IMG/VR virus record: IMGVR_UViG_3300027994_000002
Span: 1-64,000 of that record
DNA: 64,000 nt
Source: a virus
Strand: one strand, 5' to 3'
Numbering within the stretch: the stretch's first letter is position 1; each line of letters begins with the position of its first letter. The position numbers and the translations under genes are program-made. Positions 32,659 to 59,941 of the stretch are shown one piece after another. The notes under the pieces were generated by a model, which was given only the letters and a program-made list of their open reading frames with translations, was not told the origin of the DNA and made no database searches.

Positions 32659-32697
32659 AACATACGCTACTGAGAACAAAGTGCAACAAAAAACTTT
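32659..32697 (-). promoter_or_regulatory. recurrent promoter cassette, minus-strand copy
   Basis: Minus strand reads AAAGTTTTTTG-TTGCAC-16 nt-TATGTT-6 nt-ATG. Confidence 0.55.
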
Positions 32698-32704
32698 GAG
32701 CGCA

Positions 32705-32741
32705 CTTTTTTATTGCTCAAATAATCAAGGGCAGGCATAAA
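32705..32741 (+). promoter_or_regulatory. partial promoter cassette facing the replication module
   Basis: CTTTTTTA-TTGCTC-17 nt-CATAAA, back-to-back with the minus-strand copy. The palindrome TTGAGC-N13-GCTCAA (32696-32720) overlaps the -35. Confidence 0.35.
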
Positions 32742-32896
32742 GGTTGGCGTTAGAGCGGTGTGGAAGCCGCAAGCAAAATGAATAACATTCAATTCACGCC
32801 TAATCGTCGTCAAGGGAAAGGGATTTTTACTCGGCCGTTGCCCTGTATTGCGCCCGCTTCCACCCCTATGGGGGCGATTAGGCATGAGGTGAAATC

Positions 32897-33316
32897 ATGT
32901 CATCCTATTCAGAAAAATTAAGGCACCCTTTATGGCAGAGGAAAAGATTAGAAGTTTTAAATAGGGATAACTTCCGATGCATTAATTGCGGAGAGCGCGA
33001 GAAAACCCTAAACGTACATCATTCCTATTACGTAAAAGGTAGGGAAGTTTGGGATTATCCGATGTTTTCCCTTTCAACGCTTTGCGAAAATTGCCATTCA
33101 CAAATAGGCCAAGAAGAAAGAATTGATGGCTCAAAAATGAATGAATGGGAAATTGCCTTCGATCGCATTTGCAAAGGTGATTTGAGTGTAACCGCAGATT
33201 ATGTATGGGACTTGTCTATGGAACTGTGCATGTACTCTGAGCGAAATGGAATACCAATGGAATGCCTTCTAAGCAAGTTGGTGGTGGAAATATCCAGAGA
33301 CAGAACTCGCAAATGA
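32897..33316 (+). CDS. HNH endonuclease-like protein
   Basis: FRCINCGEREKTLNVHHSYY...LCENCHSQI, the same architecture as the 6438 gene. A GAGGTG SD lies upstream. Confidence 0.65.
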   Translation: MSSYSEKLRHPLWQRKRLEVLNRDNFRCINCGEREKTLNVHHSYYVKGREVWDYPMFSLSTLCENCHSQIGQEERIDGSKMNEWEIAFDRICKGDLSVTADYVWDLSMELCMYSERNGIPMECLLSKLVVEISRDRTRK

Positions 33317-34017
33317 AGCGTTTTACTGAAACCACCAAGTGGGACGACCCTTGGTTTCAAGACCTGAATCCCGCACATAAGTTATTTTGGATTTACCTCT
33401 GCGATAATTGTGATAACACGGGTGTTTGGAAAGTCAACTGGAGATTGGCCAATTTCCAAATAGGGGTTGATTTAAAAAAGGAAGAATTATTGCCTATTTT
33501 TGGCAAAAGAATCCATGTTCTTGACGAAGAAAGGTGGCTCATTGTTTCCTTTATTTGCTTCCAATATGGGGAGCTTTCAGAGGAATGCAGGCCGCACAAG
33601 CCGATACTCGCTTTGATAAAGAAGCACAATTTACAAAGGGTATTAATAGGGTATTCAAAGGGTATCAATACCCTTGAGGAAAAGGACAAAGAAAAAGACA
33701 AGATTAAGAAGGGGGAGTTCGAGGGGGTTAACCCATTTGCACCTTTGGAAGAAAAATCCAAAAAGAAAGCCGCGTCTGAGCAGGAGGCCGTGGAATTCTG
33801 TAGGGATATAGGACTCAAGCCGGATGATGGAAGTTGGTTCTGGGATAAATGCGAGGGTTCTGGATGGAAGAACGCAGGTAAGCCGATAGTTGACTGGAAA
33901 GCTGTGGTGAGGTCCTGGCAAAGAATAGCCATCTTCCCCTCACAAAAGAATCAGAATCAAGGTTTCCAAAAACCAAAACAACAAAGCCTGCCCATGGGAA
34001 TACCGGAACCAATATGA
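33313..34017 (+). CDS. putative replication initiator / helicase-loader-type protein
   Basis: ATGA overlap. Lies immediately upstream of DnaB. The Trp-rich N-terminus TKWDDPWFQDL..KLFWIYLCDNCDNTGVW is common in phage replisome organisers. The call is positional. Confidence 0.45.
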   Translation: MKRFTETTKWDDPWFQDLNPAHKLFWIYLCDNCDNTGVWKVNWRLANFQIGVDLKKEELLPIFGKRIHVLDEERWLIVSFICFQYGELSEECRPHKPILALIKKHNLQRVLIGYSKGINTLEEKDKEKDKIKKGEFEGVNPFAPLEEKSKKKAASEQEAVEFCRDIGLKPDDGSWFWDKCEGSGWKNAGKPIVDWKAVVRSWQRIAIFPSQKNQNQGFQKPKQQSLPMGIPEPI

Positions 34018-35309
34018 AAAAAACAGAAGTTCACTACAGTGAAGAAGCAGAGAAGGCCGTTCTAGGCTGCATGCTTGTTCATCCAAAGAAATCCCTGCCA
34101 AAATTCGACGAGGCCCTGAAGTTCTCAGACTTCTTTGTTCCCGCGCATCGAATCTTGGCGGAAATCATTTGCTACATTGATTCCTGCGGTCATGAGGTGG
34201 ACGTGCTGACAGTCCATCAAGAACTATGCGATCGCAAGTTGGATTCCAAGGTCGGTAGTCCAGGAATCCTAGCAGACCTCATGAGCGGCTACGTCAGCCA
34301 TGAAACCATGGAATCCTACATCCGCATTGTGGTGAAGAAGTCCAAATACCGCGCCTTAATGGAAATGGCAGAAGGGATTAGGTCCAAACTAGAGGAAGGA
34401 GAGGACATTGAAACCGTGCTTAGCGGCGTTCAAGCCTTAGTGGACAATGCGTCTACCGTCAAGGAGGGTCGAATTTACTCCGGGAAGGCACCCTGGGACG
34501 CTCTTTATGCCTACATTGATAGTTGCCCCTTAGAACGGCAAAAAACATGGCTTAAAACGGGTTTTATGCAATTGGACGCCTGCGTCAATTCTCTGAGGCC
34601 GGGAAGAAGTTACGTGATCGCAGCAAGGCCCGGCATTGGAAAGACCGCGTTGGCCTTGAACATCATGCGCAATCTCCTGATTGAAAAAAAGCCGTGCGGC
34701 ATGGTTAGCCTGGAAATGTCGGAGTCCGAGGTCAGGCAGCGGATGCTCGCAAATCACGCTTCCATCGATACGAGAAAAATCGAAAACGGCCTGGATGCCG
34801 ATGGTAAACTTAAGGCCAATCTCGTCAGAAGCGAAGTCGAAGCTTGGCCCCTGCATGTCTTGGAGCAATCTAGCATGAACATCGCCGACTTGCGTCTCCG
34901 CGTCCGACAGCTAGCCCACCTCGGATGCAAGGTGATTTTTGTGGACTATCTTCAGCTCCTAAGCTCAGAGGACCCCAGGGCGAGCAAGAAAAAGCACGAG
35001 GAATTAGGCGAGATCACACGCCTAACCAAGGTCATGGCAAGAACTTTCAATATTCCGATTGTGATGTTGGTTCAGCTTGCTCGCATGGATAAAGACTCGG
35101 AGCCTGACCTTGAAAATCTTGCGGGATCAGACTCCATTGGAAGAGACGCCGATTGCGTGATCATCATGTATAAGGAAGGCGAGGCTCCCGACAATCGCCG
35201 CGTTCCTATAACTTGGAAAATTGCCAAAAATAGGCAAGGGCCTAGAGGCAAAATACCAACAAACTTTGACGGACCACTTGTGCGATTTACCGAAAAGGGA
35301 ATCGAATAG
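34014..35309 (+). CDS. dnaB: replicative DNA helicase, DnaB family
   Basis: N-terminal AEKAVLGCML, Walker A ARPGIGKTALALN, Walker B VIFVDYLQLL, and arginine-finger region LARMDKDSEPDLENLAGSDSIGRDAD. Confidence 0.85.
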   Translation: MKKTEVHYSEEAEKAVLGCMLVHPKKSLPKFDEALKFSDFFVPAHRILAEIICYIDSCGHEVDVLTVHQELCDRKLDSKVGSPGILADLMSGYVSHETMESYIRIVVKKSKYRALMEMAEGIRSKLEEGEDIETVLSGVQALVDNASTVKEGRIYSGKAPWDALYAYIDSCPLERQKTWLKTGFMQLDACVNSLRPGRSYVIAARPGIGKTALALNIMRNLLIEKKPCGMVSLEMSESEVRQRMLANHASIDTRKIENGLDADGKLKANLVRSEVEAWPLHVLEQSSMNIADLRLRVRQLAHLGCKVIFVDYLQLLSSEDPRASKKKHEELGEITRLTKVMARTFNIPIVMLVQLARMDKDSEPDLENLAGSDSIGRDADCVIIMYKEGEAPDNRRVPITWKIAKNRQGPRGKIPTNFDGPLVRFTEKGIE

Positions 35310-35392
35310 GCGCGACGGAGCAACCGACCAGATTCTTATCACCTTCGACCCAAAAACAACTAAATTCACTGACCAATAAACAAAATAAACAT

Positions 35393-35862: not shown

Positions 35863-36335
35863 ACAAAATAACCGAAAAGCATAGGGAAGTAGCTGAAAAG
35901 CTATTTATGGCAAATTACGTGGATGGGGCAAACGGGCCAACTGAAAATCCAGATAGTGAAGAGGCGATGGCTCAAATCCTAGCCGACGCGTTTCCTGAGC
36001 CAATAACGGTATCTATGGAGGACTACGAACTGAGCAAATTGCCGAAACTAGATCACAAAGGGAATGTTACCTATCTACCTACAAGCCTTGATCCGAAAGA
36101 GCGGATTAGGGAGCTGGAGAAGAATCTGGAAGAATCAAAACTAGGATACTTGAGACTAGAACAATTGTATTTCGACAAGCTGGATCAATCTAGCCGCATT
36201 AGCGAGTTGGAGACCAAGATTAAGGAGAAGGATAGATTGATGAAGCGATTCCAAAAAGTCGCGTTTCAGCACAGATTCGATAAAAAGGTGGGAAGATTGC
36301 TAACGCAATACGAAGCGCAGAAAGGGAAGGCCTAA
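35859..36335 (+). CDS. hypothetical coiled-coil protein (158 aa)
   Basis: The stop overlaps the stop of the convergent terminase gene. Confidence 0.45.
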   Translation: MNKITEKHREVAEKLFMANYVDGANGPTENPDSEEAMAQILADAFPEPITVSMEDYELSKLPKLDHKGNVTYLPTSLDPKERIRELEKNLEESKLGYLRLEQLYFDKLDQSSRISELETKIKEKDRLMKRFQKVAFQHRFDKKVGRLLTQYEAQKGKA

Positions 36336-38182
36336 TCAAAGCTCATGTATTGAATAGGTCCCACAATATCCTCTACAGGCTCCTGTTGGCGTTGGCTCGC
36401 GCCTGCTATCAGGACCGCCTCGAAGCCTTGCCTCATCCGCACGAGATGAACCAAAAGAGTCAAGCTATCAATCTCATCGGGCGATCGGTTTCCCCTTGCC
36501 TTATACTCCTTCTTTCCCTCCACTCGAACCTTGCTGGGGTGAGGTTTAAACCGCCTCGTGCACATCTGTTCCGTGAGTAAGGCGGTATCCATGCTGGGGC
36601 TGATTTTGAGGTAATCAAACTCTAGGAAATTACGGGCTGCAAAGAAAAGTTCTGTGACAATGCCGTCGTATAGATCACAGGCCTTTTGAGAGCTATCCGC
36701 GAACAGCTTGAGCTCTGTTGCGGCGGCTCCAAAGTGGATGCCTGCAACTTCGGATCCCAGGCCTTCTGGAGGTTCTGATCGGAGCATGTCGTGCAGCCCG
36801 GTTCCATTGCCTGTCCGGTCGCAAATCATCCAGACGCCTTTAATGGACAGGTTTCGGCAATGCATCTTCACCTGATGTGCCATCCACGGCGTTTGAGTCA
36901 TCTTTCCTTCGGGGTCATTCTTCAGCAGAGCAAATTGGCTCTCTGCCTGTAAGGCGTACTTTGGCTTATCGAAAAAGATGTTCTGGCCCCGTAAATTGTA
37001 GCCCGTCGCCATCCCAAAACGGCCGATGGTCATCGGGGCTTTATCGTCCCCTTCAAAGGCCGAATCCAGAGAAGCCAAGTAAGTGACGGGGCCTGTAAAA
37101 TTCAGCCGAGCAATGGCTTTTTCCATGAAATCACGAGGCACGACATTGATGGACAGGCCCTTGGCGGGAAACCAACCTCTTGCCATAGTGAAATATTCGG
37201 GCGATGTATCGCCCTGCAAAAGGTAGCGTTTATAGCCATCCCATGAGATCAGGCCTGGGAAAATAAGCTTTTGTTGGATGACGTTTTGGCACCGCGCTCC
37301 ATCGAGCCTAACGACCGACCATCCCCACTTGGATTTCCATTGAACCGAGTGCTCAATATCCACCGAAGCCCAGCCGTTTTCTGGCTCACACCGCTTTGCA
37401 AATTTGGAATCAATATCTCGTGGATTTGCCGCTGCCGCCACCTTCACGTGCTCCACGTCATCAATCGTGATGAGCATGTTATCGACGTCCTCCCAAATAC
37501 CTCCCGGCACCTCCTCGGCTTCATCGATACAGGCTCGCACGCGGGACATGACTCCAAACTTCGGGTGGGGAGTTTTACGGGGTACGGGGTGAAAACCCTG
37601 GAGCCTACCGGAGCCATCTTCGCCTTGAGGAATCGCCACAAGGTGGATGCCCTGTTTTTCGTCATTGGAGGCCTGAATGGATGTGCCTTTGGCAATCCCC
37701 GGAAGAGGAATCGAAGACTGCCGGTGCAAATTCTTGATATGCGCAAACGCATTCCGCATGGCATGCTCCAAAGTCAAGGAAACAACCTTGACACAGGTCC
37801 ATAAAGGGTCCTCAATCCAGTCGAGGAGAAAGAAGGCCGCAAACCCGTACGATTTCCCGAGAGAACCACCCCCTTGAACCAAAAGCGTGGCCGTGAGCCT
37901 AATCTCGCTCCAAATTAATTGGACGCTCTCCGGTTCGGCGTTGAACAGGTTACTGCCCCAAAGAATATGGGCCACATCCTTGTGCATGCCCTTGCCGATC
38001 ATGTAGGGGATCAGGGTTTTGTGATAATCAATCCCGCCGCCGTAGCCGATCAAATAGGCCAACCCCTGACCTTTTTCCACCTTGATCTCATGGACGCTAA
38101 ACTGATCAATCAGAACCTGTGCGCAGGCGTCATAATCTTTCTCATGCGCCAGCTGGCTCGCCAATTCAACGTATTCTTTCAC
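36332..38182 (-). CDS. terL: terminase large subunit
   Basis: Walker A QGGGSLGKSYG, Walker B RACIDEAEEV, a C-terminal RNase-H-like nuclease region (WMICDRTGNGTGLHD), and a length of 616 aa. Confidence 0.75.
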   Translation of the reverse strand: MKEYVELASQLAHEKDYDACAQVLIDQFSVHEIKVEKGQGLAYLIGYGGGIDYHKTLIPYMIGKGMHKDVAHILWGSNLFNAEPESVQLIWSEIRLTATLLVQGGGSLGKSYGFAAFFLLDWIEDPLWTCVKVVSLTLEHAMRNAFAHIKNLHRQSSIPLPGIAKGTSIQASNDEKQGIHLVAIPQGEDGSGRLQGFHPVPRKTPHPKFGVMSRVRACIDEAEEVPGGIWEDVDNMLITIDDVEHVKVAAAANPRDIDSKFAKRCEPENGWASVDIEHSVQWKSKWGWSVVRLDGARCQNVIQQKLIFPGLISWDGYKRYLLQGDTSPEYFTMARGWFPAKGLSINVVPRDFMEKAIARLNFTGPVTYLASLDSAFEGDDKAPMTIGRFGMATGYNLRGQNIFFDKPKYALQAESQFALLKNDPEGKMTQTPWMAHQVKMHCRNLSIKGVWMICDRTGNGTGLHDMLRSEPPEGLGSEVAGIHFGAAATELKLFADSSQKACDLYDGIVTELFFAARNFLEFDYLKISPSMDTALLTEQMCTRRFKPHPSKVRVEGKKEYKARGNRSPDEIDSLTLLVHLVRMRQGFEAVLIAGASQRQQEPVEDIVGPIQYMSFD

Positions 38183-38763
38183 ACTTCAAGAGCCTTGAAT
38201 TGAATCTCACTAATTGGCTTCATGCCGCCTGCAATCACCTTCTGACCCACAATCGTCTTGTAGGCATCCAGGAGAAACTTACCGGCTCCGCCCTTATCTA
38301 ACATCGCCTGAACAACGGCCATGTCCTTTTTAAGCGCGGGGTCATTCAAGTCTTCCACGCTCTGGATGTTCTCAATCCGCTTAATCTTGCCCACAAGGCG
38401 CATGACGCAATGCTCAATATCGCTCTTGGTTTGCAGGACAATCCGCTCCTGCCGATCGCTCTGATGCTCTTGAAGAAAAAGATCATAGGCCGCAACCCGC
38501 TTGGGCCATTGCCAATTCATGGAGGCATGTCGGATAGCTGAATGGGATTCTTTGACCTGACTCTCGGGAATGTTTTGCGCAATCGCCGAAGCCTTAATTG
38601 CCGACCGCTCATCCCAGGCAATGTCTCGATAAATCAAGAAGAGTTGGTAATCCCTATCACTCTCTTCCGGCTGCTGCCTATAAATAGGTTCCACAAGCGG
38701 AATGCGTTCTTTGTTGTCGCGATACTCTTTGGTATGGACAATGGGGTCGGTTTTACGAGGCAT
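38179..38763 (-). CDS. terS: putative terminase small subunit
   Basis: Lies directly upstream of terL with a 4-nt overlap, 194 aa. The call is positional only. Confidence 0.45.
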   Translation of the reverse strand: MPRKTDPIVHTKEYRDNKERIPLVEPIYRQQPEESDRDYQLFLIYRDIAWDERSAIKASAIAQNIPESQVKESHSAIRHASMNWQWPKRVAAYDLFLQEHQSDRQERIVLQTKSDIEHCVMRLVGKIKRIENIQSVEDLNDPALKKDMAVVQAMLDKGGAGKFLLDAYKTIVGQKVIAGGMKPISEIQFKALEV

Positions 38764-38771
38764 TAAAAAGA

Positions 38772-38800
38772 CTTATAAAAGCAAACCAACATAATTGCAA
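38772..38800 (-). promoter_or_regulatory. minus-strand promoter for the terminase operon
   Basis: Minus strand reads TTGCAA-17 nt-TATAAG-8 nt-ATG, about 25 bp from the divergent + strand cassette. Confidence 0.45.
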
Positions 38801-38813: not shown

Positions 38814-38853
38814 AAAAGTTTTTTATTGCTTTTTAACTAGAATTCGATAGAGT
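38814..38853 (+). promoter_or_regulatory. recurrent promoter cassette
   Basis: AAAAGTTTTTTA-TTGCTT-16 nt-TAGAGT, with ATG 38860 six nt after the -10. Confidence 0.65.
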
Positions 38854-38859
38854 AGTGAA

Positions 38860-39108
38860 ATGAAAAGGAAAACATCCGAAGAAATCCTTGCCATATTTAA
38901 GGAGTTCAAAAAGAAGTGCTTTGATCACGGGAAATTTTTAGACCCGGGAGATGAGTGGACTTGGGATGCAATGGCCGCTGGTTTTATGCTTGCGAAAGGC
39001 GTTCCTCTTCGACAAGCTAAAGATTTTGCTTGGTTTTACTATCAATTTTGTGAAGCACTAGAAAAGAGTGACGAGCACGCGCTAATCGAAATAAGGACTT
39101 TATTTTGA
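38860..39108 (+). CDS. hypothetical protein (82 aa)
   Basis: First ORF after the promoter cassette, in leaderless geometry. Confidence 0.5.
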   Translation: MKRKTSEEILAIFKEFKKKCFDHGKFLDPGDEWTWDAMAAGFMLAKGVPLRQAKDFAWFYYQFCEALEKSDEHALIEIRTLF

Positions 39109-39115: not shown

Positions 39116-39295
39116 ATGAAAATAACATGTTCAAGCCAACGAATGGAATACGCGAAGCTTGCGGATGTGCTCTACGAGGCTGTAGATGATTGTCGATTTA
39201 ATATCGACCAAAAGGGATCGCGACCAAGGGAAATAGAGGAAGGCATGCAGAAAGCCTTGAAGGCCTATGAGGAAATGAAAAACAACAAGACCTAA
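39116..39295 (+). CDS. small hypothetical protein (59 aa)
   Basis: Below the ORF-track cutoff. Fills the gap, and its stop is the first base of the next cassette. Confidence 0.4.
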   Translation: MKITCSSQRMEYAKLADVLYEAVDDCRFNIDQKGSRPREIEEGMQKALKAYEEMKNNKT

Positions 39296-39333
39296 AGTTT
39301 TTTATTGCTATTTTTGTAAATAAACGCCATGCT
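39294..39333 (+). promoter_or_regulatory. promoter cassette copy with divergent -10
   Basis: AAAGTTTTTTA-TTGCTA is conserved. No TAGAGT follows at 16-17 nt; the alternatives are CATGCT or an extended TGTAAATAA. Confidence 0.35.
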
Positions 39334-39342
39334 CCAATTCTC

Positions 39343-39807
39343 ATGCAACACCTTCAATCTGACGTCCAACATTTCATGGAACTTGCCCAGCAAGAAACAC
39401 CCAAATATCCCTTCATTCCAACGCCGGAGGTTCGTAAACTCCGGGCAAAGTTGATTCTCGAAGAAGCCCTCGAACAATGCCAAGCGCTCGGCGTCGAGAT
39501 TACAACGACAGCCATCGGCGCTGCCCTTAAGCTGGATGAAGCAGGACTCCAATTTCACCCCGTCAACCAGCCTGATATCACCCTTATTGCAGATGGAATC
39601 TGCGACCAACTTTACGTTTCCATTGGAACCGGCGTGGCCTTCGGCCTCGATCTAGCACCAATCTGGAAACTCGTGCATGAAGCCAACCTGGCCAAGTTCG
39701 GGCCCGGCTCCTATCGCCGCGACGACGGCAAGCAGATGAAGCCTCCAGGATGGGTTGCGCCGGATGAAGCCATTCGCCTCGAAATTCAATCGCAGGTTCA
39801 CGCCTAA
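39343..39807 (+). CDS. mazG: MazG-like nucleoside triphosphate pyrophosphohydrolase
   Basis: RKLRAKLILEEALEQCQALGV and ADGICDQLYVSIGTGVAFGLDL..IWKLVHEANLAKF follow the EExxE / D..y / h.sN..K pattern of all-alpha NTP-PPases. Confidence 0.6.
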   Translation: MQHLQSDVQHFMELAQQETPKYPFIPTPEVRKLRAKLILEEALEQCQALGVEITTTAIGAALKLDEAGLQFHPVNQPDITLIADGICDQLYVSIGTGVAFGLDLAPIWKLVHEANLAKFGPGSYRRDDGKQMKPPGWVAPDEAIRLEIQSQVHA

Positions 39808-43024: not shown

Positions 43025-43656
43025 GCGCCCTTATTCTCCCCTGCGCCGGACAAAGCTCTCGTCACGAAGGTCTACCCAAATGGCTTAAAATGCATCCAGA
43101 CGGAACCATTATGGTGAGGGTTGCGGCAAAAGGATTTACCGGAAGGCCCATAATGGTTGTTCTACAGGAACACCTTGAGCGCATTGGGTTTCATCCAGTG
43201 AATGGTTTTGAAGCCATTGTTATACATAAAAGCGAATCTCAAGTAGACACGGTTCGGCAAGCGATTCAAAAAGCGGACATCAAAGGCCCAATTATCATAA
43301 AAGATTGTGACAATTACTTTGAGCCTCAAGCTCCGATGGTAGGGAACTGCGTCGCCTACGATGTCGATTTGAACCCCGGATGCGCTCGGAGCTATCTCAC
43401 CATTTTTGGGGGCGAAGTTGGTTTCATCGCCGAAAAGAACCCCATCAGCAACCTTTTTTGCGCGGGAGCCTACGGCTTTGAATCGGCGGAAGAATTCATG
43501 GAATTCAGCCAAGGCAAGCAGTATATTTCGCAAGTGATTTCATGCCTGTTGCTCAAAGGTAGGCGGTTCCAGCCGATCCCAATCAAGAACTACGAAGACT
43601 ACGGCACGCAGGAGGCCTGGGATGCCTTTTTAAGAGGTAAAGAGCATCCCGTATAA
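43021..43656 (+). CDS. sugar-/alcohol-phosphate nucleotidyltransferase (LicC/IspD/GlmU-N-like)
   Basis: MSALILPCAGQSSRHEGLPKWL is the canonical N-terminal (I/L)PxAGxxxR...PK signature. ATGA overlap. Confidence 0.65.
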   Translation: MSALILPCAGQSSRHEGLPKWLKMHPDGTIMVRVAAKGFTGRPIMVVLQEHLERIGFHPVNGFEAIVIHKSESQVDTVRQAIQKADIKGPIIIKDCDNYFEPQAPMVGNCVAYDVDLNPGCARSYLTIFGGEVGFIAEKNPISNLFCAGAYGFESAEEFMEFSQGKQYISQVISCLLLKGRRFQPIPIKNYEDYGTQEAWDAFLRGKEHPV

Positions 43657-43692
43657 AGTTTTTATTGCTTTTTAATCAGAAAGCGATATAGT
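43655..43692 (+). promoter_or_regulatory. recurrent promoter cassette
   Basis: AAAGTTTTTA-TTGCTT-16 nt-TATAGT, with ATG 43699 six nt after the -10. Confidence 0.65.
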
Positions 43693-43698
43693 GAGGAA

Positions 43699-44991
43699 AT
43701 GGAACAAGAAATCAAGCAAATCCTCCTCCAGCTCCTTTCTGACGGCAAACTCGAACTAACTCTTAACGATAATTCCATACGGGACGGCATCCGCCGCTGC
43801 CGCTCGGATGTACGGGATCAGATCGATTACGCCATGCAGAATGGCGGCTTCCCCAAAGACCGCGTCCAGAAAATGATGGACGATCAAGTGGGCGGCTACA
43901 AGGAAGAACTCAAAAACAGGCTTGACCGCATCGTCCAAGAAAAGCAGGTGCTCAAGATGGCCTTGCAAGTGAACGAGGGGCCTGTTATCCAGACAGGCCT
44001 CCAGCACAAGCAATTCGCCGAGCTCCTTGCTATCTGCCAAGCAGGCCTGAATGCCTACCTCGTCGGGCCTGCGGGCTCCGGCAAGACAACCGCCGCTGAG
44101 CAAGTCGCCAAGGCCCTCGGCCTGTCCTTTTACTTCACGGGCGCAATCACATCCGAGTTCAAACTCACCGGCTTTATCGATGCCCAAGGCCGCGTGGTTT
44201 GCCCTGCTTTTCGTCGAGCCTACGAGCACGGGGGGGTCTTCCTCTTCGATGAAATCGACGCCTCCATGCCGCAGGCGGTTCTGGCTTTTAACGCCGCAAT
44301 CGCCAACGGAATGATGGATTTTCCAGACAAGACCGTGCCGAAGCACAAGAATTTCTACTGCATCGCCGCAGCCAACACCTTTGGCAATGGTGCGGATCGG
44401 GTTTACGTGGGCCGCAATCAAATGGACGGCGCAACAATCGACCGCTTTGCCTTCCTGGATTGGGGTTATGACGAGGCCCTGGAAAAGGTTCTGACCGATC
44501 ACAACGAATGGGTCACCTACGTCCAGAACGTCCGTCGAGCCGTCGCGGAGCACAAGATCCGGCACGTTGTATCCCCTCGTGCCTCCATGAGCGGCTCGAG
44601 GCTCCTCAAGAACAAAATGGACCGCAAGCAGGTCGAGGACATCACGCTCTGGAAGGGCTTGGATCAAGAAACCATCAAGAAGATCAAGGCCTCGGTCGCG
44701 CAATATCAACCGAAGCCCAAACCTGTTTTGGAACCGGAATTCCGTGGATACGATGAAGGATACGAAAAAGAATATACGATGATCCAAGGGATTAAACATT
44801 TTCGACTCCCTGCCGGAACAAAAGTAAAGAAAGGAGATTGCTTTATTCAGGGTGATCCAATACCGGATTTTTGCGTTCGGGAAGGAACTAAAACAACCAG
44901 TATTGATAATGTCTACCGCTCCGCTGAGACTGAATACGAGAAGCAGAATCGAATCGATTTAGCGATAAAAAAAACCACCTTCGACTTCTAA
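43699..44991 (+). CDS. AAA+ ATPase, MoxR/CobS (AAA_5) type
   Basis: Walker A LVGPAGSGKTTAA, Walker B GGVFLFDEIDA, and sensor region IAAANT...DGATIDRF. Confidence 0.75.
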   Translation: MEQEIKQILLQLLSDGKLELTLNDNSIRDGIRRCRSDVRDQIDYAMQNGGFPKDRVQKMMDDQVGGYKEELKNRLDRIVQEKQVLKMALQVNEGPVIQTGLQHKQFAELLAICQAGLNAYLVGPAGSGKTTAAEQVAKALGLSFYFTGAITSEFKLTGFIDAQGRVVCPAFRRAYEHGGVFLFDEIDASMPQAVLAFNAAIANGMMDFPDKTVPKHKNFYCIAAANTFGNGADRVYVGRNQMDGATIDRFAFLDWGYDEALEKVLTDHNEWVTYVQNVRRAVAEHKIRHVVSPRASMSGSRLLKNKMDRKQVEDITLWKGLDQETIKKIKASVAQYQPKPKPVLEPEFRGYDEGYEKEYTMIQGIKHFRLPAGTKVKKGDCFIQGDPIPDFCVREGTKTTSIDNVYRSAETEYEKQNRIDLAIKKTTFDF

Positions 44992-45028
44992 AGTTTTTTG
45001 TTTCTTTTTAACTGCAATCCTATAGAGT
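44990..45028 (+). promoter_or_regulatory. recurrent promoter cassette
   Basis: AAAGTTTTTTG-TTTCTT-16 nt-TAGAGT, with ATG 45036 seven nt after the -10. Confidence 0.6.
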
Positions 45029-45035
45029 TTCTTTT

Positions 45036-45932
45036 ATGGCTAAACTTAGTTTTATTGAAGAGCGCATTGCCCACATTAAATCCAATCATCCAGACGCCCT
45101 GTTTCCTCCAGTGGAAGCAGAACAATACAAAAACGCAGGCGCAATCACCTATCGCATGAACAAAGATGAGTTCTTGCAATACGCGGAAAAGGATCGCCTA
45201 AAGAAAGGCGTTTCTGTTCGGTATAACCCAAAGGGTACCAATGGGGATTTTGTACTTCCGACATTTGAGGAGGCCATGCAGAAGGCTCGCAATGGCTGGG
45301 CGGAAAAGACGGAAGCCTGCCATAAAATGGCTTCCAGAATAGATGATCGCATCCGTAAGATGACACCCAAAAAAGTCGTTTATTATGATGTGTTTGGAGG
45401 TCAGCCTGATGTTGGGCGTTACCTATCGGGGGATCCAGAAAACATGCTGCACCGCCAAGACTCCGACTCACAAGCGCAAGCTTCTAATCGCATTGTCAAA
45501 GTCGTCCTTGATGTCAACCGCAATGCCTTCGGATATAACGCCGCTTTAGCAGAGGCCCGAGGAGCAATCGCAATGGCCGCCGTGGACGCAATCGAGCAAT
45601 CCGGTAAAAGGGCCGAAATTCACATCTCCTCTGGCTTCCGGGGAGGCGGCAAGGCCGTGGAGTTTGCCGTCCAACTCAAGCGCTCCCAAGACCCACTCGA
45701 CCTGGACATGCTGGCCTTTTTTTGCTGTTGCGCTGATGTCGAAACGCGGTTCATGTTTCAGTGCGCTCATAACATTGGGTTCGATATGAATTATGGCGGC
45801 ATCGAGGCCAGCGATCAAGGCGACCTTTACATTGGCTACATGCCAGAGGAGGCGACAAGCAACCCCGAGGGGTGCATTGAAAAAACCATCCAACTCCTCA
45901 ATCAAGTCGGCCTGCAACTCGAAGATAACTGA
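45036..45932 (+). CDS. hypothetical protein, probable partner of the AAA+ ATPase
   Basis: 298-aa ORF following the MoxR/CobS-like ATPase. In such pairs the partner is often vWA/CobT-like. No motif confirmed. Confidence 0.5.
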   Translation: MAKLSFIEERIAHIKSNHPDALFPPVEAEQYKNAGAITYRMNKDEFLQYAEKDRLKKGVSVRYNPKGTNGDFVLPTFEEAMQKARNGWAEKTEACHKMASRIDDRIRKMTPKKVVYYDVFGGQPDVGRYLSGDPENMLHRQDSDSQAQASNRIVKVVLDVNRNAFGYNAALAEARGAIAMAAVDAIEQSGKRAEIHISSGFRGGGKAVEFAVQLKRSQDPLDLDMLAFFCCCADVETRFMFQCAHNIGFDMNYGGIEASDQGDLYIGYMPEEATSNPEGCIEKTIQLLNQVGLQLEDN

Positions 45933-45971
45933 AAGTTTTTTATTGCATTTTAATTCCAAACCGAATAGAGT
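45932..45971 (+). promoter_or_regulatory. recurrent promoter cassette
   Basis: AAAGTTTTTTA-TTGCAT-17 nt-TAGAGT. Here a 33-nt G-poor leader precedes ATG 46005. Confidence 0.6.
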
Positions 45972-46004
45972 ATCACTTCAATCAGTAACACCCAAACAAA
46001 CACT

Positions 46005-46589
46005 ATGAGCAAAAAGAACAAAGATCCATTCGCCGCAACGCCTGAAACCCCGGAGGCGGATACCCCCGAGGAAACCACCATTACTGCAACCATCGCCTCG
46101 CCTAAAAAGTGGGACGGTGCCTCTGTCTACAAGGAATGCAAGGAGCAGGACGTCTTCCCTTCCTTTGAATCCGGCAACTTCATCGGCTATATCCACGCCC
46201 CGACAGGCAAGGTCGTCTCAACCTCCATGCCGACCATGAGCGCGGTGCTCTACGAGTCCTACAAGAAGGCCGAGTCGGAAGCCGTCGAAAAGGCCAAAAA
46301 GAAGGCGGAGGCGGCAAAGCCCAAGCCTGAAAAGGCCCCCAAAGCTCCCAAGGAGCCCAAGGCAGCGAAAGAACCCAAGGAAGGCCGGGGCCGTAAGCCT
46401 GCCTTCGACAAGGACGCCAAGATCACCGTGGTTTCCGAAAAGAACCCTCGTCGCCCCGGCTGCCCCGGTCACGCCTCATTCGAGGTCTACAAGAACGGCA
46501 TGACAGTCGCGGAATACCTCGACACGCCGCAAGGCGAAACCTGCCACCTCCGCTGGGACGTGGACCACGGCTTCATCACGCTGGCCTAA
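46005..46589 (+). CDS. Lys/Pro/Ala-rich AT-hook protein with conserved C-terminal domain (paralog of 57919)
   Basis: KKKAEAAKPKPEKAPKAPKEPKAAKEPKEGRGRKPA (AT-hook GRGRKP), followed by NPRRPGCPGHASFEVYKNGMTVAEYL...CHLRWDVDHGFITLA. Confidence 0.55.
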   Translation: MSKKNKDPFAATPETPEADTPEETTITATIASPKKWDGASVYKECKEQDVFPSFESGNFIGYIHAPTGKVVSTSMPTMSAVLYESYKKAESEAVEKAKKKAEAAKPKPEKAPKAPKEPKAAKEPKEGRGRKPAFDKDAKITVVSEKNPRRPGCPGHASFEVYKNGMTVAEYLDTPQGETCHLRWDVDHGFITLA

Positions 46590-51012: not shown

Positions 51013-51501
51013 ATGAGCGATCTTGCCGCCTTTTTGAGGAAGGGTTTTACAATCGGCCCCAACGGCGATTTAAACCCTCCTGCGCCTAAAAGGGCGGCAA
51101 CCTTACCCAAAGCAAAAGAAAATGCGCCTCAGGAGCCCCTGGGAGCGCAAAAAGGCATTCCAAGCAAGCTGGTGTTGCCGTATCCACCCAGCGCGAACCG
51201 TTATTGGCGCAACTTCCGAGGTCGCACGGTTTTGTCAGAGGAAGCAAGGGCCTACAAATCCCTTATCCAAGATAAGGTTGGGGAACAGCCTATGTTGAAA
51301 GGCCCGCTCGTCATCGCGCTCCTCATGTACAGGCCCCAGAAATCAGGCGACCTGGATAATCGCATCAAGGTCGCGATCGATTCCCTGCAAGGCGTTTTAT
51401 TCGAGGATGACAAGCAAATAGTGGAGATCCACGCCTACCGAAGGGACGACAAAAACAACCCCCGCGTCGAGGTGGAAATCAGGCCAACAGAAGATTGTTA
51501 A
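51013..51501 (+). CDS. rusA: RusA-family Holliday junction resolvase
   Basis: LVLPYPPSANRYWRNFRGR...ARAYK...GDLDNRIKVAIDSLQGVLFEDDKQI matches the catalytic Asp region of RusA. Confidence 0.8.
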   Translation: MSDLAAFLRKGFTIGPNGDLNPPAPKRAATLPKAKENAPQEPLGAQKGIPSKLVLPYPPSANRYWRNFRGRTVLSEEARAYKSLIQDKVGEQPMLKGPLVIALLMYRPQKSGDLDNRIKVAIDSLQGVLFEDDKQIVEIHAYRRDDKNNPRVEVEIRPTEDC

Positions 51502-51538
51502 AGTTTTTTATTGCTTTTTAACTGGAATCCATTAGAGT
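51500..51538 (+). promoter_or_regulatory. recurrent promoter cassette
   Basis: AAAGTTTTTTA-TTGCTT-16 nt-TAGAGT, with ATG 51545 six nt after the -10. Confidence 0.65.
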
Positions 51539-51544
51539 GATGAC

Positions 51545-51850
51545 ATGCAAACGGTACTCACTCCAAAAGCAAAACACACCAACGGGTACTCCTACCCACT
51601 TTACGCTATTCTTTGGGATAGCTGCATTCAAGGCAAGAAGTACGAATCGATTGACGGGCATCCACCCAAGCCCTTCAAATCCAAAACAGAAGCCCAAAAG
51701 TACGTCGATCGCCAGATCAAAGGGCCAATGCCTGCGCATTTTACTCGCCCCACGACGCATGAGATTGTCGAGCACCCCTACAACAACGCCAGTGAAAAAA
51801 TCAAGGCCGAATATCTCGCCTGGCTCAACGCCGACCACTCCAGCAAATGA
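51545..51850 (+). CDS. hypothetical protein (101 aa)
   Basis: Preferred over the overlapping 51537 frame because of its protein-like composition and leaderless geometry. Confidence 0.45.
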   Translation: MQTVLTPKAKHTNGYSYPLYAILWDSCIQGKKYESIDGHPPKPFKSKTEAQKYVDRQIKGPMPAHFTRPTTHEIVEHPYNNASEKIKAEYLAWLNADHSSK

Positions 51851-52753: not shown

Positions 52754-53035
52754 ATGCCTATCCTAGAAGAAATCGAGGCCCTGCTCAGGGAATACAAGCA
52801 AAGCTCGCCCTTTGACATTCCTGCGCCGAATCGCCTGGAAATCCCCAAGCATCGCCTAGAGGAATTTGCTGATGCCCTGCAAACCGAGATCGAGCCCAAA
52901 GAAATCCAGAGGAAGCCTAAGAAAGAAGCCTCCAGTTACGATACCCTGATCTACAAAGGCATGCATGTCCAGATAAGCGAAGGGAAGCATTGCAAAATCC
53001 AACTCTGGAATATCTTTATTGAACCTACTCAATAA
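52754..53035 (+). CDS. hypothetical protein (93 aa)
   Basis: ORF starting 2 nt after the previous stop. Confidence 0.45.
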   Translation: MPILEEIEALLREYKQSSPFDIPAPNRLEIPKHRLEEFADALQTEIEPKEIQRKPKKEASSYDTLIYKGMHVQISEGKHCKIQLWNIFIEPTQ

Positions 53036-53071
53036 GTTTTTTGTTGCTTTTTAATCAGAATCAAGTAGAGT
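53034..53071 (+). promoter_or_regulatory. recurrent promoter cassette
   Basis: AAGTTTTTTG-TTGCTT-16 nt-TAGAGT, with ATG 53078 six nt after the -10. Confidence 0.65.
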
Positions 53072-53077
53072 AATCAA

Positions 53078-53551
53078 ATGAGCACTGAAAATAAATTCAC
53101 GCCGGGCCCTTGGAGATGGGAGATAAATCTTAAAGCAAATGAGATGCATTTGTCGGGAGGAGTTCCAAAGCATGACCTGTACATTTTAGGATTCAAGCGA
53201 TGGGGAATGTCTGGCGCGAGAGCGACTGTGCGCGAAGAAGATGGGAACATGGTTGATGTTGATTCTTTGGCGTCTCTTATTCCAGATCGCGAACATCATG
53301 CCGCATGGCTTCAAACTGCACATCATCCTGATTTGGATCTAATAGCAGCCGCTCCCGATCTTCTCGCGGCTTTGGAGATTGCCAAGAAAGAACTCGAAGA
53401 TTTGTGGAGTTTTTACGGCAAGGGCCTTGAAGTTCAGAACTGGCATCTAAACGGTGACATGATACCTTTAGATACGTTCTTTGAGGACAATAATTCAAAT
53501 GCCACAGAGGTTATCGACAAAGCCATCGCCAAAGCGAAAGGGGAGTTGTGA
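53078..53551 (+). CDS. hypothetical protein (157 aa)
   Basis: First ORF after the cassette. N-terminus reads FTPGPWRWE. Confidence 0.5.
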   Translation: MSTENKFTPGPWRWEINLKANEMHLSGGVPKHDLYILGFKRWGMSGARATVREEDGNMVDVDSLASLIPDREHHAAWLQTAHHPDLDLIAAAPDLLAALEIAKKELEDLWSFYGKGLEVQNWHLNGDMIPLDTFFEDNNSNATEVIDKAIAKAKGEL

Positions 53552-56445: not shown

Positions 56446-56468
56446 TGTAAAAAGCAATAAATAACTTT
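56446..56468 (-). promoter_or_regulatory. inverted partial copy of the promoter cassette (UP/-35 part only)
   Basis: Reverse complement reads AAAGTTATTTA-TTGCTT-TTTACA. No TAGAGT-like -10 lies at 16-17 nt on the minus strand. Confidence 0.3.
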
Positions 56469-57819: not shown

Positions 57820-57827
57820 AATAGTTG

Positions 57828-57866
57828 AAAGTTTTTTATTGCTTTTTTTGTGGAGGATGATAGAGT
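57828..57866 (+). promoter_or_regulatory. recurrent promoter cassette
   Basis: AAAGTTTTTTA-TTGCTT-16 nt-TAGAGT. A 52-nt G-poor leader precedes ATG 57919. Confidence 0.6.
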
Positions 57867-57918
57867 GATGAACGTAACGCAAGTCCACTTTTCAAAACAA
57901 ACTCACTAACCTACTCTT

Positions 57919-58350
57919 ATGAACGACCTCTCCACTTGGACCGCCAACAACACCGTCAACGAACTCCTCACCAAAGCCTCCACTCGTAAGGCCAAGCTCA
58001 TCACCCCTTCCAAGCACCGCAAGGTGAAGGCCTCCGTCAAGCCTGTCGAAAAGGCCCGCAAGCCGCTGACCCGCGCCGCCTTGAAGGCGGTAGCCAAGGT
58101 TGCTCCCGTCGCGCCTCAGCCCAAGCCTGCGACTGAAATCAAGCGCAAGGGCCGCCCCTGCCTGTTCGACCTCAACAAGGTCATTACGGTGCTCGCCGTC
58201 GGCAATCCCCGCAAGGCGGGCGGCGTGGGTCATGCGGCCTTCGCACTCTACAAGGCCGGGATGACGGTGGCCCAGTACCTTTCCAAAGACGGCGGGGAAG
58301 CCTGTCACCTGCGCTGGGATGTGAAGCACGGGTTTATCTCTATCGCCTAA
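57919..58350 (+). CDS. basic AT-hook-like protein with conserved C-terminal domain (paralog of 46005)
   Basis: KRKGRPC, followed by NPRKAGGVGHAAFALYKAGMTVAQYL...CHLRWDVKHGFISIA. Confidence 0.55.
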   Translation: MNDLSTWTANNTVNELLTKASTRKAKLITPSKHRKVKASVKPVEKARKPLTRAALKAVAKVAPVAPQPKPATEIKRKGRPCLFDLNKVITVLAVGNPRKAGGVGHAAFALYKAGMTVAQYLSKDGGEACHLRWDVKHGFISIA

Positions 58351-58354
58351 TCCA

Positions 58355-58510: not shown

Positions 58511-58542
58511 GTTGATACCCTGCTAGCCTACCCTTAACCGCC

Positions 58543-58797: not shown

Positions 58798-58865
58798 CTC
58801 GACAGGCGGGAGGCCTGACTCACAGTTCAAATGACATCAGATAGATTAGAATCGTTAGTTTGATA

Positions 58866-58938: not shown

Positions 58939-58963
58939 AATCAACCTCAACCAAAGGAACAAG

Positions 58964-59218
58964 ATGAATCAATTGAATTCCGTATCCGAAACCAGTGGGC
59001 GCATCCTCAAAATCCTCAAGCCGTGTCTCGATTACTGGCTGGATGAACAGACCCTCTACCTCACGCTCAATCTCTCCCGGCCCCAAGTCACGCGTGCCCG
59101 GCTGGAGGAATCGCTGCGCGAGTTGCGGGACAAGGCCTATCTCGATTTCCGGGTCGATCCCCTGTCTCGGTTGAATGAAATGCGAATCAATAAGGCTTAT
59201 CGCGCCGCTTTTCTCTAA
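58964..59218 (+). CDS. hypothetical protein (84 aa), winged-helix-like
   Basis: ORF with an AAGGA SD 5 nt upstream. Confidence 0.45.
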   Translation: MNQLNSVSETSGRILKILKPCLDYWLDEQTLYLTLNLSRPQVTRARLEESLRELRDKAYLDFRVDPLSRLNEMRINKAYRAAFL

Positions 59219-59222
59219 ACCT

Positions 59223-59489
59223 ATGGCAACCCTCTACACAACCGACGGCAAACAACACGAAGTCAAGCCCAGAAACGGAACCGACTTCCAACTCGACGAG
59301 CTCTACAAACTCATCGGCTGCGAAGTGATTGAAGTGGTGGCCGTGGAAGGCGACAGGCTCCTCATCATTGACGAGGAAGGGAAGTTGAAAGCCCGGCCGA
59401 TGAACACACAGGCAACCATCCTTGCGGACTTGTGCGGCGACTACATCGTCGGCAATGCCTTGTTGGTTAACGGCGAGGAGTTCTTGTGA
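59223..59489 (+). CDS. DUF3846-like protein
   Basis: DGKQHEVKPRNGTDFQLDELYKLIGCEVIEVVAV..LLIIDEEGKLKARPMNTQAT matches my recollection of the DUF3846 pattern. Confidence 0.6.
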   Translation: MATLYTTDGKQHEVKPRNGTDFQLDELYKLIGCEVIEVVAVEGDRLLIIDEEGKLKARPMNTQATILADLCGDYIVGNALLVNGEEFL

Positions 59490-59785
59490 ACCAGCAATCT
59501 ATTGGCAGGAAAGCGGCGATTGCGCTTGCGGAGAGCAAATGGTGGGAAGGAAAATCTAACCGGGATATCGCAGAGTTTCAGTTCCTCACGCGAGAGCTTT
59601 GCATGCCCTTCGGTGTGTTCCATGAGGCCCTAGAGAAGACGCTTGGGAGGCCTGTCTTCACGCACGAATTGGGCGATAACGCAAAAGGCATTGAAGGCGA
59701 GCTATTCGACGGCAAGCCTGCGCCTTCCTTCCAGGAAATCCTCGAACTGATTCCGGGGGATAAGCGTATCGTGATCCAGGTGTAA
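59486..59785 (+). CDS. hypothetical protein (99 aa)
   Basis: GTGA overlap start. Confidence 0.45.
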   Translation: MNQQSIGRKAAIALAESKWWEGKSNRDIAEFQFLTRELCMPFGVFHEALEKTLGRPVFTHELGDNAKGIEGELFDGKPAPSFQEILELIPGDKRIVIQV

Positions 59786-59821
59786 GTTTTTTGTTGCTAT
59801 TTAACTACACCCTGATAGAGT
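59784..59821 (+). promoter_or_regulatory. recurrent promoter cassette
   Basis: AAGTTTTTTG-TTGCTA-16 nt-TAGAGT, with ATG 59828 six nt after the -10. Confidence 0.65.
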
Positions 59822-59827
59822 ACTCTC

Positions 59828-59941
59828 ATGATCCCACTCATTCCAACGCCGATTCCACCGTGCTACTTCAAAGAACGCATCGCCAAGCAACCGCCCCTCA
59901 AAGAGCGGGTGAAGAGCGGAAAGAGGTTGGAGGCCCAATGA
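59828..59941 (+). CDS. small protein (37 aa), first gene after the cassette
   Basis: Leaderless geometry identical to the other cassettes. ATGA overlap with the next gene. Confidence 0.4.
   Translation: MIPLIPTPIPPCYFKERIAKQPPLKERVKSGKRLEAQ

Follow-up and report, generated by a model that had tools for sequence, protein, structure and literature searches.

A repeated promoter-like cassette in the window

We analysed positions 1 to 64,000 of IMG/VR virus record IMGVR_UViG_3300027994_000002, a 64-kb stretch of phage DNA hereafter called the window, in which an intergenic cassette of ~45 bp recurs about a dozen times ahead of early-type genes. These cassettes are probably strong promoters of the sigma-A/sigma-70 type, serving early or middle (pre-late) genes, with an ATG set for a leaderless or near-leaderless start, a reading to which we assign a probability of about 0.7. 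The early/middle timing is judged from gene content only.

From 5' to 3', the cassette consists of a stop codon (TAA or TGA fused into AAAG), a tract of six T residues, a first hexamer that is TTGCTT or a one-base variant of it, a spacer, the hexamer TAGAGT, and an ATG. A preliminary description of this DNA had listed the copies, and their coordinates were all correct when each copy was re-read. The literal consensus given there, with its fixed N10/N11 spacer, matches one site only, because spacer length varies; its upstream half, AAGTTTTTTRTTGCTTTTTAA, gave 10 matches in the window at no more than 3 mismatches, compared with 0.00 in dinucleotide shuffles. These matches lie on the plus strand at positions 38816, 39295, 43655, 44991, 45933, 51501, 53034, 57829, and 59784, and on the minus strand at 56447-56467; an eleventh copy, at 32696 on the minus strand, has 5 mismatches. 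An independent repeat search ranked this family first among the repeats of the window (8 copies of 52 nucleotides, nt). All copies lie within 32.6-59.8 kb, and the motif scan of the window found none in 1-32.6 kb or 60-64 kb.

The two hexamers are separated by 16 nt in eight copies and by 17 nt in two, in agreement with the 16-17 nt first described. The second hexamer is TAGAGT in seven copies, and TATAGT, TATGTT, and CATGCT in one copy each. An ATG follows it after 6 nt at 38860, 43699, 51545, 53078, 59828, and 32652(-), after 7 nt at 45036, and after 9 nt at 39343, while copies 45933 and 57829 have their ATG far off, 33 and 52 nt past the hexamer, respectively. The distances of 6-8 nt that had been reported for eight sites were all recovered, being 6 nt at six of them, 7 nt at 45036, and 8 nt at 38763(-), the last of which is not a cassette site. 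Where the upstream gene is co-directional, its stop codon lies 3-6 nt 5' of the T tract at 7/8 window sites, so that stop and motif run together as TAAAG or TGAAAG; the claim that most cassettes begin at or within a few nt of the preceding stop codon is borne out. The entire stop-to-ATG gap, 42-44 nt, is filled by the cassette, and every intact copy is oriented in the same way as the downstream gene.

In the proposed mechanism, the A3G-T6 tract, at about -46 to -37, would take the position of an UP element, TTGCTT would act as the -35 element, followed by a spacer of 16-17 base pairs (bp) opening with TTTAAY, and the -10 element would be TAGAGT in the window phage and (T/C)AnnnT in its relatives. 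The UP-like tract and TTGCTT would do most of the recognition, and the minimal -10 would set the start at or just before the AUG. Transcription usually begins 7 nt after the -10 hexamer, which is the A of the ATG when hexamer and ATG are 6 nt apart. Where the ATG lies 6-9 nt past the -10, RNA polymerase is thus predicted to initiate on this A or at most 3 nt ahead of it, and each unit would open with a gene whose mRNA is translated with no leader, or almost none, and no Shine-Dalgarno sequence. Downstream genes would be translated via stop-start overlaps or short A-rich, G-poor leaders and, with no terminators between units, successive cassettes would give rise to nested transcripts. The genes served would be early/middle genes of replication, recombination, and DNA modification.

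Conservation in related phages

Syntenic fragments of six related phages were gathered by a motif scan and by homologue look-ups of the AAA ATPase and the terminase. These were L002 (on the same contig as L001 and L038; proteins 58-64% identical), L010 (a 2.9-kb fragment around RusA), L040 and L041 (AAA ATPase 63% and 72% identical, respectively), and L043 and L044 (large terminase subunit, TerL, 68% and 66% identical, respectively). Their coding DNA is 66-74% identical to that of the window where it can be aligned. At no more than 2 mismatches, the core TTTTTTRTTGCTTTTT was found at 29 places in the window and the relatives' loci combined; it is kept in L002, L010, L040, L041, L043, and L044 despite a protein identity of 58-72%, with near-invariant columns spanning A-3 to T+15.

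From the window and the six relatives, 27 non-redundant cassette sites were parsed, and TTGC is present in 26/27 of them. An nAnnnT hexamer lies 16-18 bp after the TTGC hexamer in 26/27 sites, compared with 14% at random positions (p ~2e-21; the -10 was picked as the best of three spacer lengths, and the null was allowed the same freedom). The ATG of an open reading frame (ORF) of at least 35 codons lies 6-10 nt past this hexamer in 21/27 sites, compared with 3.3% expected by chance (p ~2e-26). The 27 sites are partly orthologous and not independent, and both p-values overstate independence; despite this, the effect of hexamer and ATG spacing is not subtle. The genes behind the cassette ATGs are mostly unrelated to each other.

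The sites therefore have the geometry of the sigma-70 family, with a TTGnnn hexamer and a TAnnnT-like hexamer (A2 and T6 in 26/27 sites) 16-18 bp apart. Among the relatives, the -10 hexamer takes the forms TATAGT, TATACT, TATGAT, TATTTT, CATAAT, CAAGCT, CAGCCT, CACCTT, CACATT, and CAAACT; of the six positions, only the second (A) and the sixth (T) do not vary, and the GAG is gone in most variants. A2 and T6 of a -10 element are the bases that are flipped out and captured by region 2 of sigma-70-family proteins. Variation that keeps A2 and T6 and drops the GAG fits a -10 element, and not a Shine-Dalgarno sequence or ribosome binding site. Moreover, divergent intergenic copies (32696-, L043 1874-, L044 2178-, and L002 248-) have no upstream co-directional gene to read through from, and something must therefore initiate transcription there. 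The promoter function put forward in the preliminary description thus holds under these sequence tests.

The core was not found in L039 or L046, and L042 has a degenerate form only (TerL 40-55% identical in these three); L045 (TerL 69% identical) has no core copy in its 4.8 kb. Given this loss or degeneration of the core at greater distance, the cassette appears mostly confined to closer relatives. A motif scan of metagenome contigs gave 30 matches, of which 29 were single chance matches (26 in low-GC contigs) and only L010 was a relative; the same scan of viral contigs gave one relative. An AAA ATPase scan of genome contigs returned distant homologues only, without the motif (L003-L005, binned as Cloacibacterium, a proteobacterium, and Tenericutes).

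Start codons and leader sequences

A -10-type signal lies 6-10 nt before the ATG in 21/27 sites, which leaves no room for a ribosome binding site. The presence of TANNNT about 10 bp upstream of a start codon is the accepted in silico mark of a leaderless gene (PMC3160421), and for Deinococcus, experiments have shown that this upstream signal works as a -10 element rather than as a ribosome binding site (PMC12340547). The promoters of the small terminase subunit (TerS) genes of the window and of L042-L045, though not cassettes, likewise place the ATG 6-8 nt past a -10-like hexamer; the -10-N6-8-ATG layout is thus not confined to the cassette.

The positions of the start codons are corroborated in several ways. 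The cassette ATGs are the first possible start codons of their ORFs, and they were chosen by the independent gene caller of the public contigs. The AAA ATPase starts with MEQEIKQILL and its orthologues begin within ±3 residues, including those without a preceding cassette, while DUF7192 has the same length as its L002 orthologue. The position of the ATG is moreover common to genes that are not homologous to each other. Judged by these comparisons, the cassette ATGs are the true start codons, and the earlier proposal that first genes are leaderless is supported. For ATG 59828, which had been listed as the start of a first gene, the evidence is circumstantial. It opens an ORF of 37 codons only (59828-59941), which is absent from public gene calls; what makes this ORF credible is the overlap of its TGA with ATG 59938, where the following gene starts. 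The ATGA overlap couples it to a 110-amino-acid (aa) gene (59938-60270), with GGAGG 5 nt upstream of ATG 59938.

A Shine-Dalgarno-like 4-mer was found at 32% of 72 gene starts, compared with a background of 18%, and the sequence upstream of starts is A-rich and G-poor, a pattern which suggests that the host rarely uses Shine-Dalgarno sequences, although canonical ones do precede a few genes, such as that at 32897. Short intergenic leaders are likewise G-poor and of a CTCACT/ACTC type, for example upstream of 47471, 49756, 57919, and 46005. Long leaders precede only two cassette genes, 46005-46589 and 57919-58350. The two are paralogous, sharing 51% identity across their C-terminal 109 aa, and have a middle region rich in Lys, Ala, and Pro; leaders of 20-30 nt are also retained by the orthologues in L002 and L040. 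On this comparison, the presence of a leader is gene-specific and conserved.

Two public gene calls, L040:4760 and L043:1854, start at a TTG inside the -35 region of a cassette. The family pattern appears to put the true ATG 41-43 nt past the start of the T tract, at about 4796 in L040 and at 1833 in L043, and both calls appear to be annotation errors caused by the cassette.

Individual copies

The divergent control region carries two copies back to back. The minus-strand copy (32650..32697) is composed of AAAGTTTTTTG, TTGCAC (32686-32681), a 16-nt spacer, TATGTT (32664-32659), CCTCTC, and ATG 32652, which opens a 66-aa ORF. The plus-strand copy (32705..32741) is composed of CTTTTTTA, TTGCTC (32713-32718), a 17-nt spacer, and CATAAA (32736-32741); described beforehand as degenerate, it is a weak partial copy, whose hexamer has no T at position 6. 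It would yield a leadered transcript, and the HNH gene at 32897 has a canonical Shine-Dalgarno sequence, GAGGTGA.

A copy with a perfect core, at 38814..38862(+), contains TTGCTT (38826-38831), a 16-nt spacer, TAGAGT (38848-38853), and, after 6 nt, ATG 38860 (82 aa). Next to it, on the minus strand (38761..38800), the small and large terminase genes are preceded by TTGCAA (38800-38795), a 17-nt spacer, TATAAG (38777-38772), 8 nt, and ATG 38763; listed beforehand as a related promoter, this is a separate promoter-like site, not a copy of the cassette. The cassette at 39293..39345(+), which includes the stop TAA 39293-39295 at its 5' end, had been described as degenerate but also fits the pattern, with TTGCTA (39305-39310), a 17-nt spacer, CATGCT (39328-39333), 9 nt, and ATG 39343. 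The gene that starts there encodes a MazG-like pyrophosphohydrolase of 154 aa, and the syntenic copy of its cassette is L002:6504.

Several further cassettes begin at the stop codon of the preceding gene. The one at 43654..43701(+), starting from TAA 43654-43656, contains TTGCTT (43665-43670), a 16-nt spacer, TATAGT (43687-43692), GAGGAA, and ATG 43699 of a CobS-like AAA ATPase; its orthologues are L041:4029, L002:9678, and L040:9685. At 44989..45038(+), TAA 44989-44991 is followed by TTTCTT (45001-45006), a 16-nt spacer, TAGAGT (45023-45028), 7 nt, and ATG 45036 of DUF7192. The cassette at 45930..46007(+) starts from TGA 45930-45932 and contains TTGCAT (45943-45948), a 17-nt spacer, TAGAGT (45966-45971), a 33-nt gap, and ATG 46005 (194 aa), whose predicted 5' untranslated region (UTR) of about 27 nt is G-poor and has no Shine-Dalgarno sequence. 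At 51499..51547(+), the RusA stop TAA (51499-51501) is followed by TTGCTT (51511-51516), a 16-nt spacer, TAGAGT (51533-51538), GATGAC, and ATG 51545 (101 aa). At 53033..53080(+), from TAA 53033-53035, we found TTGCTT (53044-53049), a 16-nt spacer, TAGAGT (53066-53071), AATCAA, and ATG 53078 (157 aa, Phage_P22_Y8K6). The cassette at 57828..57921(+) has TTGCTT (57839-57844), a 16-nt spacer, TAGAGT (57861-57866), a 52-nt gap, and ATG 57919 (143 aa), with a predicted 5' UTR of about 46 nt. The last one, at 59783..59941(+), starts from TAA 59783-59785 and contains TTGCTA (59794-59799), a 16-nt spacer, TAGAGT (59816-59821), ACTCTC, and ATG 59828 (37 codons).

The inverted fragment reported near 56446 corresponds to the upstream half of the cassette only (56447..56467, minus strand; variant AAAGTTATTTATTGCTTTTTA), with no usable -10 or ATG on its own strand; around it, the plus strand reads TTGTAA-17-TACCCT-9-ATG 56483. 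Three such inverted half-copies were observed, the others being L047 12911-12926(-) and L047 15786-15801(-), in the 4.7 kb outside the window, and all share the same T-to-A change (AAAGTTATTTRTTGCTT), which gives TAACTT or TAAATT on the plus strand. At L047 15775-15813, the plus strand reads TTGCCT-17-TAACTT-6-ATG; the gene that follows (492 aa) is the first of the structural block, and its C-terminal part corresponds to the window ORF that ends at 1229. The inverted half-copies may represent a second, possibly late, promoter class.

Cassettes at probable points of gene gain and loss

In the window and L041, a cassette separates the AAA ATPase gene from DUF7192, whereas these two genes overlap or directly adjoin in L002, L040, and L042, with no cassette. 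In L010, RusA is likewise followed by a cassette, orthologous to that of the window, but the first gene behind it is a non-homologous one. Moreover, two cassette-plus-gene units of the window (46005 and 57919) are paralogous. Repeated cassettes could act as patches of homology for the gain, loss, or swap of genes. The view that they mark such points, like the PeSLs of T4-type phages, is supported in this small sample, in which the evidence for recombination at cassettes comes from three junctions only. The organisation into promoter-plus-gene modules, as first suggested, is consistent with the presence or absence of the cassette between conserved genes and with the swapped first gene of L010. 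The greater likeness of copies within one genome than between genomes, given below, fits the same picture.

Alternative explanations

In addition to the partial orthology of the 27 sites and the choice among spacer lengths, several points weigh against the promoter reading. TTGCTT and TAGAGT agree with the E. coli TTGACA/TATAAT at 7/12 positions, fewer than the 9/12 of a good match to a consensus that is E. coli-specific and may not be that of the host, and a generic sigma-70 scan reports no cassette. The invariant block, at 16-21 bp, is much longer than a -35 hexamer and leaves room for a factor other than a host sigma. Copies are more alike within a genome than between genomes (48% vs 38% over the spacer and -10 segment; permutation p = 0.0005), which gene conversion or a phage-specific reader could cause. 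At three promoters, a tandem half-copy, TTTTTTRTT(G), lies 10 bp (L002 258/248 and L002 9668/9678) or 19 bp (L040 4734/4753) upstream. As for leaderless starts, a leader of 1-4 nt, not zero, is expected where the spacing is 7-10 nt, and read-through transcripts carry the same ATGs internally, so that leaderless initiation need not be the sole route.

Some of these points would be accounted for if the cassettes were read with a phage-encoded factor, either an activator or sigma appropriation like T4 MotA/AsiA or a divergent phage sigma, which would recognise TTTTTTRTTGCTTTTT and define a phage-timed middle regulon. This is the alternative that survives best, and we regard it as possible but unlikely. 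The 16-21 bp block is far better conserved than the -10, which in the relatives is reduced to nAnnnT while the block stays exact; the tandem half-copies, the details that are uniform within a genome and differ between genomes, and the poor generic sigma-70 score point in the same direction. In addition, ATTGCTTTT resembles the T4 MotA box, which has the consensus (a/t)(a/t)(a/t)TGCTT(t/c)A. Against such a factor, about 50 window proteins gave no Pfam match to a sigma, MotA, AsiA, or helix-turn-helix family, most of them being ORFans, and neither Pfam nor PHROG supported a phage sigma or regulator, apart from a weak 34-residue Q-like match at 55012-55692. The TTGC, 16-17 bp from the -10, is in the ordinary -35 register, 1-2 bp further upstream than a MotA box, which is centred at -30. 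The copies in the divergent region (32659-32741) look like the first to fire, at a time when no phage protein can yet be available. Half-copies spaced by a single helical turn would equally fit the two UP-element subsites of the alpha C-terminal domain (alpha-CTD).

A broader version of this idea, which we hold to be rather improbable, would make TTTTTTRTTGCTTTTT the site of a phage specificity factor that co-evolves with the cassettes and redirects the host RNA polymerase to about a dozen promoters starting at an AUG. By means of leaderless translation, the phage would deliberately take over a host with little use of Shine-Dalgarno sequences (Verrucomicrobiota/Bacteroidota), and the cassettes, including the inverted TTATTT variant that makes a TAACTT -10 on the opposite strand, would double as portable units of recombination and perhaps help to switch on late transcription.

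The cassette might also act at the RNA level, as a U/A-rich translation-initiation region between the cistrons of long polycistronic mRNAs, providing a landing pad for ribosomal protein S1 or a standby site in a host with little use of Shine-Dalgarno sequences, in which case the distance to the ATG would reflect placement of the ribosome. The weak use of Shine-Dalgarno sequences throughout the genome, with A-rich, G-poor sequence upstream of starts, agrees with this, as do the start of the cassette exactly at the preceding stop codon and the GAG of TAGAGT, 7 nt from the ATG; since no terminators separate the units, read-through mRNAs containing the cassette must exist. However, the variation retains A2 and T6 and drops the GAG, and the TTG stands at a fixed 19-20 bp from the hexamer, a distance that is meaningless for a ribosome. 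Copies in divergent regions have no upstream transcript to supply them, and leaders of 16-52 nt follow five cassettes, so that the block need not adjoin the ATG. An RNA-level role, which we consider improbable as the main explanation, is compatible with promoter function.

A role of the block as a phage repressor operator, silencing lytic genes in a lysogen like the asymmetric stoperators of cluster A mycobacteriophages, seems very unlikely. The copies are indeed dispersed, asymmetric, of one orientation, and located in short intergenic gaps, the gene set is lambdoid-like (Erf, RusA, DnaB, and the weak Q-like match), and there is a divergent control region at 32.6-32.8 kb. However, no integrase or repressor was recognised in the window or the remaining 4.7 kb, and the block is identical in phages whose proteins have diverged by 30-40%, while immunity specificities usually diverge. 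The fixed downstream -10 and ATG would remain unexplained, although an operator role could coexist with promoter function.

Finally, the T tract could be read as the tail of an intrinsic terminator, with the cassette as a terminator-promoter composite like PeSLs. The T6 run does directly follow stop codons, and one site has a strong hairpin just upstream (43620-43653, -15.2 kcal/mol). This reading was nevertheless rejected, since the folds predicted for the 42 nt ahead of the T tract at 29 sites are weaker than those of random segments of the window (mean -4.9 vs -7.0 kcal/mol) and the scan calls no plus-strand terminator at any cassette.

Other promoter types were also rejected. A Bacteroidota-type promoter (-33 TTTG, -7 TAnnTTTG) is contradicted by the lack of a downstream TTTG and by the degenerate position R, which is A in 12/27 sites, and the sigma-54 and sigma-28 patterns did not fit on inspection. 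Promoters for a virion or phage-encoded RNA polymerase (N4-like or crAss-like) were dismissed because the 2501-aa protein of this phage has no DxDxD, the catalytic motif of two-barrel enzymes, and no RNA polymerase family match was found in the window.

Genome layout and host

The phage genome of 68,720 bp, of which the window represents 64 kb, assembles as a circle; the phage is uncultured and its genome is circularly permuted. An identical sequence is present as ENA contig k141_1536959 (68,861 bp), and the 4,720 bp that the window lacks are contained in locus L047. The window has a GC content of about 52%, and neither tRNAs nor Rfam matches were found in it.

Positions 1-32,455 form a plus-strand structural block, the final ORF of which encodes 2501 aa, and 32.6-64 kb form a block of replication, recombination, and DNA modification. 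The latter includes a DnaB helicase (34014), the small and large terminase genes (36332-38763, minus strand), a TET/JBP dioxygenase with a TAGT-like glycosyltransferase (40585-42314), the CobS-like AAA ATPase (430 aa; 43699, plus strand), DUF7192 (298 aa; 45036, plus strand), Erf (47471), an exonuclease (48426-49735), and RusA (51013, plus strand, with its stop TAA at 51499-51501). At 40585-42314, the TET/JBP 2OG-Fe dioxygenase adjoins a gene resembling a TET-associated glycosyltransferase, and this pair is kept in relatives L040-L042, L044, and L045; its gene content indicates a putative cytosine hypermodification module.

In the structural block, the 2501-aa ORF (24950-32455) had no Pfam, PHROG, or PDB sequence match and no DxDxD motif; its sole similarity is a stretch of 130 residues shared with phiRSL1 and a Listeria phage. 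Lacking that motif, it probably serves in ejection or in the tail rather than as a virion RNA polymerase. Collagen-like GXX triplet repeats, with units of 9 and 18 nt, were observed at 10689-10875 within a 178-aa ORF (10609-11145), which is probably a tail fibre, and a 704-aa ORF (8252-10366) has a C-terminal K1-lyase domain, as in tailspikes. A hairpin, TTGCGCC-N16-GGCGCAA, at 8190-8251 lies 3' of a 402-aa ORF (6972-8180); this ORF is probably the major capsid gene, and the hairpin may be a terminator or attenuator of the late operon. The block also contains a GDP-L-fucose synthase-like epimerase (4888-5814), which is kept on phage-sized contigs of the clade, some of them binned as Terrimicrobiaceae.

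Searches with megablast and tblastn yielded no close relative among cultured phages. Homologues of the terminase number in the hundreds in metagenomes, where they lie on contigs of about 60-69 kb, and the phage therefore appears to belong to a widespread uncultured clade. Named homologues were limited to AAA ATPases from Bacteroidota genomes, mostly metagenome-assembled genomes (MAGs), and to TerL and the GDP-fucose synthase-like epimerase from Terrimicrobiaceae (Verrucomicrobiota) MAGs. The Terrimicrobiaceae contig that carries TerL (39 kb) showed phage-like genes throughout the 21.7 kb examined, with no bacterial flank, and its taxon assignment therefore rests on binning. Host assignment failed, and the available hints point to Verrucomicrobiota or Bacteroidota. 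Both phyla include lineages that rarely use Shine-Dalgarno sequences (PMC10783764).

Comparison with known systems and significance

The cassettes share features with several known systems. The T5 promoter PN25 is a strong sigma-70 early coliphage promoter with an A/T-rich upstream element and TTGCTT as its -35. Like T5 and other coliphage early promoters, the cassettes combine a TTGCTT -35 in a T/A-rich tract with a 16-17 bp spacer and a TAnnnT -10, and many copies drive pre-late genes. However, the T5 and T7 early promoters have a near-consensus TATAAT and a leader with a Shine-Dalgarno sequence, whereas the cassettes have TAGAGT or CAnnnT with an ATG within 6-9 nt, and their upstream block is near-invariant over 16-21 bp.

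With the leaderless genes of Deinococcus-Thermus and Actinobacteria (PMC3160421, PMC12340547), the cassettes share a TANNNT 6-9 nt before the ATG and the lack of room for a ribosome binding site, and the leaderless reading of cassette genes uses the same criterion as in those groups. In Deinococcus, the -35 is often dispensable, whereas the -35/UP block is the best conserved part of the cassettes; the leadered genes of Actinobacteria and Deinococcus also differ from those of this phage, which mostly have no Shine-Dalgarno sequence. Other examples of leaderless expression are lambda cI transcribed from PRM and the middle and late genes of Thermus phage phiYS40. Leaderless genes are not known to be common in Verrucomicrobiota or Bacteroidota.

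The PeSLs of T4-type phages (PMC2839356, PMC4122927) are likewise short repeated promoter cassettes between small ORFs of a plastic non-structural region. As at the cassettes, genes are inserted, deleted, or replaced at them, and the copies are homogenised within a genome. However, PeSLs are terminator-promoter composites with a stem-loop, which the cassettes do not have, and PeSL genes are leadered, which most cassette first genes are predicted not to be. The SAS elements of mycobacteriophages contain a Shine-Dalgarno-like GGAG thought to act in translation, and stoperators are 13-bp repressor sites with no -10 or ATG at a fixed spacing. Both resemble the cassettes in being repeated, asymmetric, co-oriented, and close to start codons or in short intergenic gaps, but the cassettes have no sequence similarity to either. 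As regards T4 middle promoters, ATTGCTTTT resembles the MotA-box consensus, and in both cases the box is better conserved than the -10, which is typical of activator dependence; in T4, however, the box lies 1-2 bp nearer to the -10, the transcripts are leadered, and no MotA/AsiA homologue was detected in the phage studied here.

Sigma-70-type phage promoters, leaderless expression, and shuffling cassettes were already known, and the finding overturns no principle. For the annotation of these genomes, the pattern provides a rule that the start codon lies 41-46 nt past the T tract and that ORFs extended into a cassette are wrong calls. The cassettes could also offer compact promoter parts for poorly tractable bacteria that rarely use Shine-Dalgarno sequences. 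As sites of gene shuffling, they would join the cassettes of T4-type phages as a second, independent instance of repeated promoters that mark such sites. Should start mapping bear out the prediction, leaderless mRNAs would serve most operon-first early genes of a widespread clade, a clear case of this kind outside Actinobacteria and Deinococcus-Thermus, and the promoter would occupy all 42-44 bp from the stop codon to the next ATG.

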